A program made the translations under genes and the position numbers. Source: a virus (Duplodnaviria > Heunggongvirae > Uroviricota > Caudoviricetes). Taken from it: a DNA stretch of 54,876 nt. Shown piece after piece: positions 32,169 to 49,296 of the stretch. Within the stretch, counting starts at the first letter, position 1. Each line of letters opens with the position of its first letter. The DNA is taken from the IMG/VR virus record IMGVR_UViG_3300030250_000013, one strand, 5' to 3'. Below the pieces are notes generated by a model. It worked only from the letters and a program-made list of their open reading frames with translations. It was not told where the DNA came from and ran no database searches.

Positions 32169-32542
32169 GGGGATTGTCCTCGTATTGTTTCAACATGACT
32201 AAATTCTAACATTTCGGATGAATAATTGCACTGGTGATACACGCTGTTTACAACGTTACCGAATATCTCAGAAAGATTCTTGATCGGTTCAACAGCAGTC
32301 GTTACTGGTTCAACAGCAGTCGTTACTGGTTCAACACCGTCCAGATGTTCAGCGACAACCTGGAAAAACACTGTGTTAGTTTCACGGTCAATAATAACCA
32401 CTGTGCTGGAACTATCTTCAACAATGCTGAATGAGTAGTCGTAACGATCACCGTGAACTTTACGGGCGCGACGAATGAATTCGTCTGTAGCAACTCTGAT
32501 GTTCGGATCCATACCTTCAACCCTTCTTGTTTTCTTGACCAC
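32165..32542 (-). CDS. hypothetical protein with internal 21-bp tandem duplication
   Basis: 125 aa; repeat GGTTCAACAGCAGTCGTTACT x2.5 at 32286-32339 encoding TTAVEPV repeats. Confidence 0.4.
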   Translation of the reverse strand: MVKKTRRVEGMDPNIRVATDEFIRRARKVHGDRYDYSFSIVEDSSSTVVIIDRETNTVFFQVVAEHLDGVEPVTTAVEPVTTAVEPIKNLSEIFGNVVNSVYHQCNYSSEMLEFSHVETIRGQSP

Positions 32543-32585
32543 AGGGTAGTTGTGTCGATGTAATCCGTCAAGAATTATTTTACGT
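32542..32585 (-). promoter_or_regulatory. conserved phage promoter module, copy 5 (minus orientation)
   Basis: Minus strand TAAAATAATTCTTGACGGATTACA with -35 at 32566-32571. Confidence 0.55.
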
Positions 32586-32664
32586 ATAGATTCATGAGAA
32601 GTATGCGACTCCCTATACCTTTTAAACCTCTTCTACTTACAACGACTTTTACTACTTATACCAC

Positions 32665-32764
32665 TCTTCTATTTATTTATGTTTTCTATGTCATCTATAA
32701 AAAGATAATAAAAAGAATAAGATAGAGAGGGGTTGGTCAAAAAATAAACATGACGAAATCTATG
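32665..32764. repeat. ~100-bp AT-rich element, copy A (paralogue at 49572-49676)
   Basis: About 88% identity by eye to 49572-49676 (shared ...ATGTTTTCTATGTCATCTATAAAAAGATAATAAAAAGAATAAGATAG...GGGTTGGT...AAACATGACGAAATCTATG). Confidence 0.7.
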
Positions 32765-32778
32765 AATCTATGATCTAC

Positions 32779-32860
32779 TAATACAGAACGTGTATTAGCT
32801 GCAACTCAAAATCATGAAACCTATGTAAAACCATGTGTAGCTAATACAGAACGTGTATTA
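32779..32860. promoter_or_regulatory. two identical palindromic operator-like sites
   Basis: TAATACA-GAACG-TGTATTA at 32779-32797 and 32842-32860 (7-bp perfect inverted arms), just upstream of promoter copy 6. Confidence 0.45.
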
Positions 32861-32868
32861 GCTATATC

Positions 32869-32912
32869 TTTAAAATAATTCTTGACGAATTACAGACGGT
32901 AGGGTATCTTTA
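32869..32912 (+). promoter_or_regulatory. conserved phage promoter module, copy 6
   Basis: TTTAAAATAATTCTTGACG with -35 at 32882-32887. Confidence 0.55.
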
Positions 32913-32956
32913 TCACGGGAAGCAGCGATGGGTTGCTTATGAACGAGGGTGTGAAA

Positions 32957-33340
32957 ATGGGAATGTATACCGAATTAGTGTTGAAGTGTCAGATTAAAGA
33001 AAATGTACCTGTGGATGTGAAAGCTGTTATTGCACATATGTTCTGTGGTGAAAAAGAACCAGAGAAACTACCACAACATAAGTTTTTCAGTCTCCCCAGA
33101 TGGAATTTTATTGGTAGTTGTAGCAGTTTTTATCATCACCCGGAAGTAATAAATAGTTGCCCTAAATTTGATTTCACCGATACTCAATATATTTTTAGTC
33201 GTAGCGATATTAAAAATTATGATGGTGAGATTGAACAATTTATCGACTGGTTGAAACCGTATGTTGATGCTGAAGATGGTGCGTGTATTGGTTGGACGTG
33301 GTACGAAGAAGAATTACAACCAAAATTAATCATTAAATAA
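32957..33340 (+). CDS. hypothetical protein
   Basis: Start at ATG 32957 after GAGGGTG; 127 aa. Confidence 0.45.
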   Translation: MGMYTELVLKCQIKENVPVDVKAVIAHMFCGEKEPEKLPQHKFFSLPRWNFIGSCSSFYHHPEVINSCPKFDFTDTQYIFSRSDIKNYDGEIEQFIDWLKPYVDAEDGACIGWTWYEEELQPKLIIK

Positions 33341-33355
33341 CTCCGAGACGCTAAA

Positions 33356-33737
33356 ATGAAGAAACTGATTCTATGCGCAATGTTAACAACCCTGACAGCC
33401 TGTGATAACGCTGCTGATGTTGCCAGTCGTAACGTTGCAACCGCTGCAGCTAACTTTGAAGTAAATCGTCGTATCGTTTTCTATAACGTTCGTAATGGTG
33501 AGTATCGTTTTCTATCGAAGGTCGTTGTGCCCGTGAGAACACTAGCAAAGAGATCGAAATCACCTGTAAAACTGGTCCGAACGACGTTAAGAAACACTTT
33601 ATGGGGTTAACCACGGAGGTAACTTATTTCATTGAACAAACAGACTCCTCGCCAACAGATCAGTATCGTTATCGTGTTACGTTTAACCCGATGCAAATTC
33701 TCCCGGATCTAAACATCCGTCACCTTGGAGAATAACC
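33356..33737 (+). CDS. lipoprotein interrupted by a frameshift in a T-tract (possible superinfection-exclusion lipoprotein)
   Basis: Signal peptide MKKLILCAMLTTLTAC with lipobox LTAC; reading frame switches at the T4 run at 33508-33511 (a fifth T would join 33356-33610 to the frame that ends at 33737). Confidence 0.4.
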
Positions 33738-33738
33738 T

Positions 33739-33900
33739 ATGGGTAAAAAGAAAAGGAAACCGCCAGTTAAGAAAGAACCATATAAGCCACGACATGTTAA
33801 TGAATTATGGGCTAAAGATGTGGACGATTTTACTGAATCTGACTGGAGTAAAGTCACAAGGTTGATCGTTAAATTAAAACGTCTATCGAGGTATGCATAA
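33739..33900 (+). CDS. small basic protein
   Basis: 53-aa ORF (MGKKKRKPPVKK...) with GGAG upstream; below the track threshold. Confidence 0.3.
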   Translation: MGKKKRKPPVKKEPYKPRHVNELWAKDVDDFTESDWSKVTRLIVKLKRLSRYA

Positions 33901-47584: not shown

Positions 47585-47590
47585 AACAAA

Positions 47591-47635
47591 GTTTAAAATA
47601 ATTCTTGACGGATTACACAGGGAAGTGTAAATTAC
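47591..47635 (+). promoter_or_regulatory. conserved phage promoter module, copy 12
   Basis: GTTTAAAATAATTCTTGACGGATTACAC, -10 TAAATT. Confidence 0.55.
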
Positions 47636-47668
47636 TCACATAGACAACAAAATGTGAGGAACTGGAAA

Positions 47669-47842
47669 ATGACTAAATCTAAGATGAAAAAAGTGCTGAA
47701 AACCTGGATGGAAAACTACAACTGTTCTCTGGAAGATGCTGTTATCATCGCTCACAAAAACCACCCGTCACTTTCCGCAGTTATCGCCAGCGCTGAAATG
47801 GATCTAATGGTTGAAGGTTTATTGAATGCTGCTGGAATCTGA
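47669..47842 (+). CDS. hypothetical protein
   Basis: Start at ATG 47669 after GAGGAACTGGAAA (same RBS context as 48158). Confidence 0.4.
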   Translation: MTKSKMKKVLKTWMENYNCSLEDAVIIAHKNHPSLSAVIASAEMDLMVEGLLNAAGI

Positions 47843-48089
47843 AAAACAAGCCGTCGCCCTATTTGAAAAAATGGGGCGTTTTTACGTTGAACAACGACTG
47901 AATGAAATTAGTGATTCAGCTACTGAACGTTATAACAATTGCCGTGATATTCCTGGTGGTTGGTGTGTGATTGATTTTATGACACCAGATGAACTATCAG
48001 AACGTCACATATTGTTATTGGCTTTGACACTATGTACCGATCCGGTTAACGAAGCACGACAAAGAATTTTGCAGAGACGTTTAAAATAA
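47826..48089 (+). CDS. hypothetical protein; stop codon lies within promoter copy 13
   Basis: 87-aa ORF. Confidence 0.4.
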   Translation: MLLESEKQAVALFEKMGRFYVEQRLNEISDSATERYNNCRDIPGGWCVIDFMTPDELSERHILLLALTLCTDPVNEARQRILQRRLK

Positions 48090-48122
48090 TTCTTGACGGA
48101 TTACACTGTTTTACCCTATAAT
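48079..48122 (+). promoter_or_regulatory. conserved phage promoter module, copy 13
   Basis: GTTTAAAATAATTCTTGACGGATTACAC, 18-nt spacer, perfect -10 TATAAT (48117-48122). Confidence 0.65.
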
Positions 48123-48157
48123 TATCTCATTGAAACAGACAAGTTAGGAACTGGAAA

Positions 48158-48346
48158 ATGAAAAACTTCGAAACTAAAGCAGAGTGTGAAAAATATATCG
48201 TAGCTGAATATGGTGAATGTGCTTTTCAGGTCGGTGTAATTTTCGCTTATCGTGTAAAACCAATCGAAGCAAAAATGTTTGGTTTGGTTGAAGGTTCTTA
48301 TATGTCCAGTAACGAATTTGATGAAGCAACAGGGTACGGTCGTTAA
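48158..48346 (+). CDS. hypothetical protein
   Basis: 62-aa ORF with AGGAACTGGAAA RBS context. Confidence 0.45.
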   Translation: MKNFETKAECEKYIVAEYGECAFQVGVIFAYRVKPIEAKMFGLVEGSYMSSNEFDEATGYGR

Positions 48347-48552
48347 TGAATTATATTCCAAAATGCCTTCGTGAAATACCGAAGGTAAAACAAAAACCCC
48401 GTAAACAAGCGATAAAAGAAGCGAAAATTGAGGCTTTCAATATCGCCATTTCTATAATCAACGATAAATGTCGTATCGAAAAATCTGATCGCATGAAATC
48501 AAACATGTTTTCAGCAATGAGCGAAATAGCGATTTTACGTGATAAGCTCTAA
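48346..48552 (+). CDS. hypothetical protein
   Basis: 68-aa ORF, ATGA-coupled. Confidence 0.4.
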   Translation: MNYIPKCLREIPKVKQKPRKQAIKEAKIEAFNIAISIINDKCRIEKSDRMKSNMFSAMSEIAILRDKL

Positions 48553-48555
48553 AAC

Positions 48556-48569
48556 GCCCCGTAAGGGGC
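48556..48569. terminator. hairpin between convergent transcription units
   Basis: GCCCCGTAAGGGGC between the plus-strand block and TerS. Confidence 0.45.
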
Positions 48570-48660
48570 TTTAACACCTTCAGCAGTACACTTGCACTAC
48601 TCAACCCTGTTTATCGAAAAAGCAAACGGTTTCCGGCACGATTTAAGCCGGAATAACCGC

Positions 48661-49296
48661 CTATTTAAGCGCATTCTGATACAGTTGCGCGATATCGTCG
48701 ATGGTTGCACCTTCAGGAACACTCTGAACCACGTTACCAACCACACCAGACAATTCCACCCGGTCGATACTGTTACCGGTGATCTTATCCAGTTGTTCAG
48801 ACGCTTTTGCACGAGTTTTCGGGTCGAACAGTTCACGCGTCACCAGAATGTATCCGCCCAGCATGTAACGTTTGTAGCAAACTACGTACTGTTGCAGATG
48901 GCTGGGGATATCGTCGGTACTGTTCACCCACAGGTGTTTCGCTTCTGTGTCGTCTTCACCAGGGACGATAACGCGTTGACAATACGGTTCCAGTAATTCT
49001 TCAGCCGTGCTTGCCGCTCGTTTCCACCACTCGACACGACTCGTTAACGATTCCCCGACAGACTCAAGCGCATGACTTCCCATCGCGTCCAGATAGTTCA
49101 ACACCTTCGTATTCGACAGGAGGCGGTGTGCAGTGACTTTAGCTGCGTCAGGGTCTTTATGCCCCGGATAAGCGTGTAAGACGCACTGAGCGTTGCTGAA
49201 GCCGTTATTGACACGATCTAACCACAGGTTAGCGAAACGGAGTTGATCAGTTGTTAACTCCAGAGCAGCCCTTTTAGCCCGGTCTGAAATTTTCAT
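48661..49296 (-). CDS. terminase small subunit
   Basis: Start at ATG 49296 after GGGAGA; N-terminal LTTDQLRFANLWLDRVNNGFSNAQCVLHAYPG...AAKVTAHRLLSNTKVLNYLD matches the TerS HTH pattern (LT.KQ.RF...Y......NA..A...AGY). Confidence 0.55.
   Translation of the reverse strand: MKISDRAKRAALELTTDQLRFANLWLDRVNNGFSNAQCVLHAYPGHKDPDAAKVTAHRLLSNTKVLNYLDAMGSHALESVGESLTSRVEWWKRAASTAEELLEPYCQRVIVPGEDDTEAKHLWVNSTDDIPSHLQQYVVCYKRYMLGGYILVTRELFDPKTRAKASEQLDKITGNSIDRVELSGVVGNVVQSVPEGATIDDIAQLYQNALK

Follow-up and report, generated by a model that had tools for sequence, protein, structure and literature searches.

Phage 9NA is virulent, and lysogeny genes have not been reported in its family. In describing 9NA, Casjens et al. 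(2014) noted small novel genes interspersed among the canonically ordered virion genes; the published descriptions of the 9NA-like phages AVIO78A and Sergei add nothing about how the genes are organised. In the T4-type phages RB49 and phi1, the hyperplastic regions hold promoter-early stem-loop (PeSL) cassettes (Arbiol et al. 2010, PMC2839356), in which ORFans are lost or gained when repeated sigma-70-like early promoters recombine with one another, a chimeric element being left behind. Morons, a concept from HK97 and HK022 applied to lambdoid phages, are typically single genes of temperate phages which the prophage expresses and which lack conserved flanks (PMC3594210). Here we analyse the IMG/VR virus record IMGVR_UViG_3300030250_000013, a stretch of 54,876 nucleotides to which we refer as the window, and in particular its region of about 29 to 50 kb, where packaging and head genes on the minus strand alternate with four blocks of small plus-strand genes that begin with copies of a repeated promoter module. 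We hold with considerable confidence that this interrupted cluster is the conserved architecture of 9NA-like phages, built with opposite-strand units under host-type promoters, and that the contents of these units appear to turn over by way of the module copies.

The ends of the window share an exact duplication of 99 nt (bases 1-99 are identical to 54778-54876), so that we regard it as a circularly closed assembly with the duplication as assembly overlap, the unique circular genome being 54,777 bp. Self-closing with a 99-nt overlap is consistent with pac-type headful packaging of a circularly permuted chromosome, which is a family trait. By megablast against GenBank phages, the 32-50 kb region is 95-96% identical at the nucleotide level to Escherichia phages PJ16, Sashavirus BDX09P1, 536P12 and Bas82 KarinMuster, 84-88% to those of Salmonella (Sasha, Solent, Sergei and 9NA) and about 80% to phages of Klebsiella, for example Carvaje, with 48-71% of the region aligned to any single relative. 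One IMG/VR contig (L002) is 100% identical across everything it covers. The 9NA-like relatives, which also include the E. coli phage AVIO78A and are placed in the genera Nonanavirus and Sashavirus, have a syntenic core genome of 52-58 kb, into which the 54,777-bp genome fits with the virion gene order of the family. Judging from its sequence, the window is the complete genome of a virulent 9NA-like siphophage (Nonanavirus/Sashavirus). Our Pfam and PHROGs profile scans covered 42 proteins encoded between 29 and 50.6 kb and named no integrase or repressor family among them; Rfam (at gathering thresholds) and ARAGORN gave no matches in the window.

The late genes lie on the minus strand in canonical order, as a preliminary description of this DNA had proposed from the letters alone and as PHROGs and Pfam now bear out. 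They form five segments on that one strand. The first is the small terminase gene TerS (48661-49296; phrog_51, E = 7e-12), whose start at 49296 is backed by a ribosome-binding site and fits the 636-nt TerS of relatives. The large terminase gene TerL (42381-44144; phrog_2 and phrog_5989), 89-100% identical in all relatives, is the second, and the gene of a Mu-type portal (39335-40690; phrog_113, E = 5e-66; PF06074) the third. The fourth combines four small genes with the gene of the MuF-like head morphogenesis protein (34478-35437; phrog_2468, E = 1e-69; PF04233). The last is the head operon (29066-32168), assigned by PHROGs and Pfam and encoding an XkdF-like protease domain (31758-32168), a 419-residue protein with no assigned function, a scaffold/decoration-like protein of 136 residues and the major capsid protein (29066-30085). 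Past the capsid gene the operon runs on without a break into tail genes, themselves uninterrupted.

Separating these segments are the four plus-strand blocks of the preliminary description, all of which we recovered, with 32 small open reading frames (ORFs) preceded by good ribosome-binding sites. Block genes are referred to here by the letter of the block and a number. Block A has 14 ORFs (44393-48552) and extends from promoter to end hairpin over 44208-48569; block B starts from a module at 40760 and has five (40833-42254), among them a zinc-ribbon-like protein and two membrane proteins; block C has seven (36843-39302) with modules at 36766 and 38538; and block D, from the module at 32869 to the end of a hairpin at 34465, has six (32957-34411), including the lipobox protein D2 and the Cys-rich D5. 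Counting each from its promoter through its end hairpin, the blocks together occupy about 10 kb, or 18% of the genome. Their G+C content is 0.38-0.43 against 0.465-0.505 for the late genes, that is, 4-12 points lower.

Only two block products received functional names from Pfam and PHROGs, namely the dUTPase (C2, 37006-37509) and RdgC (A10, 46661-47584). By sequence inspection we recognised membrane proteins (C6, B4, B5 and A6) and zinc-ribbon-like proteins with Cys pairs (C4, B3, D5 and A4), of which B3 matches a double zinc ribbon below threshold; D2 belongs to the Phage_VG64 family, C7 is a DUF2560 protein and A5 a DUF5490 protein (sub-threshold). The content listed in the preliminary description (dut, rdgC, membrane proteins, zinc ribbons, a lipoprotein) is thus accounted for, the first two by profiles and the rest by inspection. 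Its suggestion that the blocks are the likely home of anti-defence and host-takeover functions had been reached purely by inference, and the profiles, which recognise just dUTPase, RdgC and a few DUFs, do not support it: no known family of either kind was found among all block proteins with Pfam and PHROGs. If morons and the hyperplastic regions in T4-type phages are a guide, an accessory, host-interaction role for the block genes is plausible. In the BASEL study, Bas82 was markedly sensitive to restriction-modification systems and Old, its extra ~10 kb gave no added robustness, and no recognisable extra locus explained its larger genome. Because the four blocks sum to about 10 kb, the "extra" DNA of Nonanavirus is plausibly these dispersed blocks.

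Comparison with relatives shows that the layout is a property of the family. Phages 9NA, Solent, Sasha, PJ16 and Carvaje all have the succession TerS, block, TerL, block, portal, block, small genes with MuF, block and head operon, in the same orientation, with the four blocks on the opposite strand and headed by the same module. The late proteins, including those of head and packaging, are 82-100% identical everywhere and in the same order, according to a tblastn matrix of 46 window proteins against 18 loci. The more distant Proteus phages RS10pmA and PmiS-Isfahan (Gorganvirus), with a portal protein 61% identical, resemble the window as well: in RS10pmA late genes and opposite-strand blocks alternate in the same way and a dUTPase gene is again found in the portal-MuF block. 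Vibrio phages of the Nahant collection (portal ~43% identical) also have their late genes interspersed with many small genes, most of which, however, share the late-gene strand. From these sequence comparisons we conclude that the positions of the four blocks are ancient and do not change among Nonanavirus, Sashavirus, Carvajevirus and the Proteus Gorganvirus. The split layout of the head genes is ancestral, an already published family architecture with turnover inside existing blocks, and is not new.

The contents of the blocks vary far more than their positions. Family-wide block genes are dut, C3, C5, C6, B3, B4, D5 and A6, while D1-D3, C1, C4, B2, A1, A3, A9 and A11-A14 are sporadic, some of them being present in this genome alone; A11, A12, B2 and C1 were not or rarely seen in the other genomes compared. 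The distances between anchor genes range across relatives from 896 to 5530 bp for TerL-TerS (A), 1637 to 5740 bp for portal-TerL (B), 3003 to 4643 bp for MuF-portal (C) and 1511 to 3023 bp for XkdF-MuF (D). On both strands, the ORFs in these four gaps fall into 129 families in 15 genomes, most of them present in few genomes, with the singleton counts inflated by a crude calling procedure that accepted ATG starts only. Block A is the most variable, with 51 plus-strand ORF families of which none is universal, and block C the most conserved, with dut, C3 and C5 in 15 of 15 genomes. The blocks are thus the variable part of the region, as the preliminary description had expected, and the identical block content in relatives that would have counted against it was not found.

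The portal-TerL gap also differs on the minus strand. Immediately downstream of TerL, 9NA, Solent, Sasha and PJ16 have four to five extra minus-strand genes that this genome lacks (comparison loci L013, 12689-13670; L014, 12074-14149; L017, 12248-15857; L001, 12932-14801). In 9NA, Solent and Sasha the set is driven by a minus-strand module copy overlapping the 3' end of TerL, and none was detected in PJ16; Sasha additionally carries a 1.5-kb homing endonuclease gene downstream of TerL. In the window, the place of this gene set corresponds to the hairpin at 42355-42372 (breakpoints 42349-42357).

These comparisons bear on the strongest of the rival explanations, which is also that of the preliminary description: that mobile early-type cassettes with anti-defence and host-takeover genes recently entered the late operon of this phage at each of its junctions. 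The lower G+C content of the blocks and their own promoters would fit such an invasion, as would the fact that A11, A12, B2, C1 and D1-D3 are unique to this genome or to few, with A11-A12 lying between two module copies. However, both the block positions and the genes dut, C3, C5, C6, B3 and B4 are common to the Salmonella, Klebsiella and Proteus relatives, so that the interruption predates the family and a recent event is refuted; and, as noted above, no block protein matches a known anti-defence family. We regard this explanation as improbable.

The element that unites the blocks is the promoter module. Searching the window for TTTAAAATAATTCTTGAC with up to 3 mismatches gave 14 occurrences against 0.16 expected; one match, at 11777, was discarded as spurious, having TATAC instead of TTGAC and no -10. 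The module consists of an A/T-rich UP-like stretch (TTTAAAATAATTC, directly upstream of the -35 in all copies), a -35 that reads TTGAC(A/G) in 12 of the 13 true copies (TCGACG in the remaining one), the conserved element (G)ATT(A/G)CA, and a -10 that varies. All 13 have a [T/G]AnnnT hexamer 17-18 nt after the -35, which at this spacing is found after 9% of other TTGACR sites and at 10% of random positions. Given the invariable presence of this hexamer, we propose that the copies are sigma-70 promoters with an UP-like element. That the sequences of spacer and -10 differ while the spacing is kept fits promoter function and not simple duplication, and all 13 copies point at downstream genes, with leaders of 30-70 nt. 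Just two copies, those at 38538 and 47592, carry a stem of 6 bp that lies between -35 and -10. The signal lies in the module itself, since a generic promoter scan was uninformative (44 promoter-like sites against 44 expected).

Four of the copies (32869, 36766, 40760 and 44208) stand at the block starts, exactly as the preliminary description had claimed, and four more lie within blocks (38538 in C; 45978, 47592 and 48080 in A), so that eight of 13 fall within the ~18% of the genome that holds most accessory genes of the region. The module is not specific to the blocks: it heads all four, but also other non-structural clusters, at 98(-), 1642(-), 6946(+) and 7010(+), and one copy at 32567-32584 (-), with the -10 TACCCT, precedes a 115-residue gene and faces the head operon. 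The use of the same promoter by other non-structural clusters indicates that the module is a general promoter for host RNA polymerase, presumably early. With their own promoters and lower G+C content, the blocks do look like independent early-type transcription units, as the preliminary description had suggested, and they would be transcribed by unmodified host polymerase right after infection.

In 9NA, Solent, Sasha, PJ16, BDX09P1, 536P12, Carvaje and IMG/VR relatives, too, each block begins with a module. At the corresponding block starts, Proteus phage RS10pmA has a less uniform version made up of an A/T-rich stretch, TTGACAGATTRCA and a -10 at 17 nt; this shorter shared core came from reading intergenic regions only. 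When the Proteus and Vibrio relatives were searched for repeats, no long promoter repeat turned up, nor, in the Proteus phage, a repeat family of at least 18 nt.

In addition to their role as promoters, the modules seem to be places where the blocks recombine. We mapped breakpoints by blastn of the region against nine relatives. Homology ends at gene boundaries (37835/38299 around C4 and 41144/41480 around B2), at terminator hairpins (42349-42357 and 48548-48577) and within a few bases of module edges (32894, 44230-44233, 46003-46004 and 48080). A direct case is provided by Sasha and Solent, which are nearly identical in the sequences flanking block A, with a block of 5.5 kb in Solent against 0.9 kb in Sasha. 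The single block-A promoter of Sasha is identical to the TerL-proximal copy of Solent up to ...TTGACGGATTGCA and from there on follows the distal copy of Solent, base for base. This chimeric promoter points to a crossover inside the module, which accounts for the 4.6-kb size difference. In the window, the cassette A11-A12 is itself flanked by two module copies. The repeated modules would thus be homology patches that allow cassettes to be lost, gained or exchanged.

The same properties could be read differently, with the module (TTGACNGATTRCA) being mainly a protein-binding or recombination site, for instance for a phage regulator or recombinase, and its resemblance to a promoter secondary. 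The 18-nt core and ATTRCA are indeed far more uniform, within the genome and across genera, than promoters require, and mosaic junctions lie at module edges. On this explanation one would not expect what all 13 copies show, namely a -10 hexamer kept at the correct spacing in spite of differing spacer and -10 sequences and an orientation towards genes with leaders of 30-70 nt; moreover, uniform promoters and recombination coexist in PeSLs. We consider it quite unlikely.

The similarity to PeSL cassettes extends to several features: repeated conserved sigma-70-like promoters, an A/T-rich upstream part, small ORFans, location in the most variable regions, and a chimeric element at a deletion junction (Sasha compared with Solent here, ORF192 in RB49 compared with phi1 there). 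The two systems differ in that only some module copies have a stem-loop (internal at 38538 and 47592, or as a terminator directly upstream of the distal copy of Solent) and most have none, and in that the present blocks belong to a siphovirus family and lie between head genes on the opposite strand. With morons the blocks share a promoter and terminator of their own, a position among late genes and a deviant nucleotide composition; unlike morons, they are multi-gene units of a virulent phage, in positions fixed across genera and under one conserved promoter.

Hairpins held in common with the converging late gene bound the blocks at their far ends. A canonical, bidirectional intrinsic terminator (39307-39328; -13.6 kcal/mol, z = -4.35) with a U-run on the plus strand separates block C from the portal gene. 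Two strong hairpins separate TerL from block B (42355-42372 and 42260-42279; -15.5 and -19.6 kcal/mol, z = -4.3 and -5.1); their U-runs are on the minus strand, and they are therefore mainly TerL terminators that form the boundary with block B. Block A ends at a plus-strand hairpin with a 5-bp GC stem and UUU (48556-48569) and contains another terminator-like hairpin on the same strand (47855-47878). The plus-strand hairpin at the end of block D (34432-34465) is AU-rich, has no U-run and barely beats shuffled sequences (z = -1.8). The earlier statement that each block ends at a hairpin terminator thus holds to the extent that hairpins occur at all four ends and that of block C is canonical; those of block B mainly serve TerL, and those of A and D are weak or without a U-run. 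Only individual hairpins carry signal here, a generic terminator scan having been uninformative (16 terminator-like sites against 15 expected).

Three related GC hairpins of the form AAAAAGCCCGG...CCGGGC are found at 24040-24062, 24834-24856 and 42256-42278. The first two lie within the tail operon, on either side of small genes that follow the major tail protein gene, and are likely minus-strand terminators or attenuators that set the ratios of tail proteins.

The late segments diverge from a block promoter at their 5' side and converge on a block at their 3' side, and can hardly be one operon. Upstream of each there is a short island that is conserved across genera, with diverging flanks. 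The putative TerS motif (49324-49347, minus strand), ACCCGTGGGTATCTGTGGGAAACT, contains the extended -10-like TGTGG-GAAACT and is conserved in all relatives. For TerL, the candidate promoter CCGTGGTAAACT (44176-44187, minus strand; TGn with TAAACT) stands 31 nt before the ATG, where the island reads ACCCGTGGTAAACTGTACAGAAC; GTGGTAAACTGTACAGAAC shows almost no variation from E. coli to Klebsiella phages, and Proteus phage RS10pmA has the near-identical CCCTGTGGTAAACT upstream of MuF. The portal gene has the candidate promoter CACTGATATAAC (40730-40741, minus strand), a motif conserved in relatives; the island upstream of MuF is (C)TGTGATATAAT, and that upstream of the protease gene in 9NA-type genomes is ACCCGTGGTTAACT. 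The cores CCGTGGTAAACT (TerL), TGTGGGAAACT (TerS), TGATATAAT (MuF) and TGATATAAC (portal) resemble -35-independent extended -10 elements. With moderate to low confidence, we consider the islands, which look like extended -10 promoters (TRTGn followed by a hexamer) without a -35, as candidate late promoters. As a class, the exact sequence TGNTATAAT is not significant (2 occurrences against 2.7 expected).

At MuF, a perfect extended -10, TGATATAAT (35468-35476, minus strand), directly precedes a GC hairpin with U6 that abuts the start codon and holds the Shine-Dalgarno sequence (35443-35466, minus strand; -15.9 kcal/mol, z = -5.0). Across relatives the stem of this hairpin is conserved and its loop varies. 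The hairpin would terminate transcripts arriving from the upstream small genes, while an RNA starting 6-8 nt past the -10 would begin inside the 5' arm and so escape termination.

Extended -10 promoters dispense with contacts to sigma region 4 and resist AsiA-type inhibition in T4. Since they need no such contacts, a switch that disables -35- and UP-dependent promoters would shut off the blocks and spare the late segments; no factor for such a switch was identified. The late segments would in any case be switched on separately from the blocks, either by a factor favouring -35-independent promoters or by an activator. The least probable rival, to which we give very little weight, is a single antiterminated late transcript that starts at one late promoter upstream of TerS, reads through hairpins and block antisense, and would thereby express all late genes and silence the early blocks by transcriptional interference: for it speak the short distances (31-70 bp) from late-gene starts to the divergent modules at DUF6378, portal and TerL, which leave little room for promoters, and the succession of promoter and terminator hairpin before MuF, which recalls lambda PR'-tR', but it would have to pass two strong minus-strand terminators after TerL and one after the portal gene, on account of which we judge it unlikely, each late segment has its own conserved upstream motif, and no Q-like antiterminator was named among the 42 proteins scanned from 29-50.6 kb.

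Several points weigh against our reading of conserved, module-driven early units facing separately promoted late segments. In the literature searched there is no transcriptome of any 9NA-like phage, so timing and promoter activity are read from sequence. The late motif is heterogeneous, three instances having no A at -11 (TTAACT, TCAAGA and GTATCT), and two motifs, including that of XkdF in 9NA-type genomes, lie about 16 nt from the start codon; the motif may be the site of a regulator or other phage factor rather than a -10 element. Weak terminators close blocks A and D. Within the E. coli subgroup, one copy of the module is directed towards the head operon and no terminator precedes the protease gene, which blurs the association of the module with non-structural genes. 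As for recombination, of 55 breakpoint clusters ten are no more than 50 nt from a module, a zone that makes up 6% of the region (binomial p = 0.002). The test is weak, since modules sit where conserved DNA gives way to variable DNA and breakpoints would gather near them even without recombination; the Sasha/Solent chimera is the only direct evidence.

The remaining features of the region concern the genes and intergenic DNA adjoining the late segments. The interval from portal to MuF, for which the preliminary description had correctly given block C, holds in addition four minus-strand non-structural genes it did not mention (35481-36735), encoding a DUF6378 protein, a 60-residue protein, NinH and a 47-residue protein, which are also present in relatives. 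The DUF6378 protein (252 residues, 35977-36735, minus strand) is a "phosphofructokinase" in PHROGs and a "nucleotide kinase" in one RefSeq record; in several relatives it is split or truncated (63% identity or partial matches), and its annotation looks unreliable.

The 115-residue gene ahead of the head operon overlaps the beginning of the protease gene. The preliminary description had placed its start at 32542; the minus-strand ORF exists, and its likelier start is 32512 (32165-32512). No terminator lies between it and the head genes. Together with its module copy it is confined to the E. coli subgroup (PJ16, BDX09P1 and 536P12), neither being present in 9NA, Solent, Sasha or Carvaje.

A 100-nt A/T-rich element without a match in Rfam is present twice (32665-32764 and 49577-49676; 90% identical), once in each of the large divergent intergenic regions that precede the head operon and TerS; it may be a regulatory hub or bent DNA, or be related to an origin or to pac. 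Operator-like palindromes lie at 32776-32864 and 49690-49811: TAGCTAATACAGAACGTGTATTAGCTA, with perfect 11-nt arms, occurs twice, its second copy abutting the block D promoter, and the interval from TerS to the next plus-strand gene holds at least four related TAATnCACAAYRTGCAY sites. The Proteus relative has a different repeat, AAAGTGAAAC, of which about eight copies stand at the corresponding place ahead of its head operon (L019, 12330-12600). The plus-strand gene adjoining TerS (49809-50621, likely start 49848) is preceded by ACCCGTGGTTAAAT and has five tandem 21-nt repeats (50400-50504) encoding EAPVARV, without a Pfam match; a related Ala/Pro-rich repeat is found at 9624-9704 in the gene 9015-9836.

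Two short sequences recur in the window. A hairpin GCCTCA-loop-TGAGGC is present at 49-71 and 35444-35465 (three matches, including the duplicate at the window ends, against 0.03 expected), in the first case after the early promoter at 98(-) and in the second between the extended -10 and the start of MuF, both times with the Shine-Dalgarno GAGG in its 3' arm; it may exert translational or attenuation control. The 8-mer CCACGGGT (reverse complement ACCCGTGG) is enriched over the whole window (72 occurrences with up to one mismatch against 36 +/- 6, ten of them exact); most copies are inside genes, and several intergenic ones belong to the candidate late motif.

Beyond the conserved architecture itself, a more far-reaching reading can be put forward tentatively, and we think it rather doubtful as a whole: the module would be a PeSL-type linker that drives cassette exchange, the blocks integron-like landing pads, and the ~10 kb of "extra" genome a dispersed gene pool, combined with an AsiA-like early-late switch that shuts off promoters dependent on -35 and UP elements and spares the extended -10-like ones ahead of each late segment.

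For annotation, the phage is an ordinary member of a described family, and the layout of its head genes should not be flagged as new. In regard to the biology of this family, about 10 kb of blocks plausibly accounts for the extra size of Nonanavirus compared with other small siphoviruses, which the BASEL study had not assigned to any locus. The parts that merit experiment are the module-mediated exchange of cassettes and the two promoter classes. Since Bas82 grows on engineered E. coli K-12, the predicted promoter classes and the roughly 30 block genes of unknown function are directly testable, and the repeated promoter offers a testable handle on accessory-gene shuffling in a siphovirus, by a mechanism so far documented in T4-type myoviruses.

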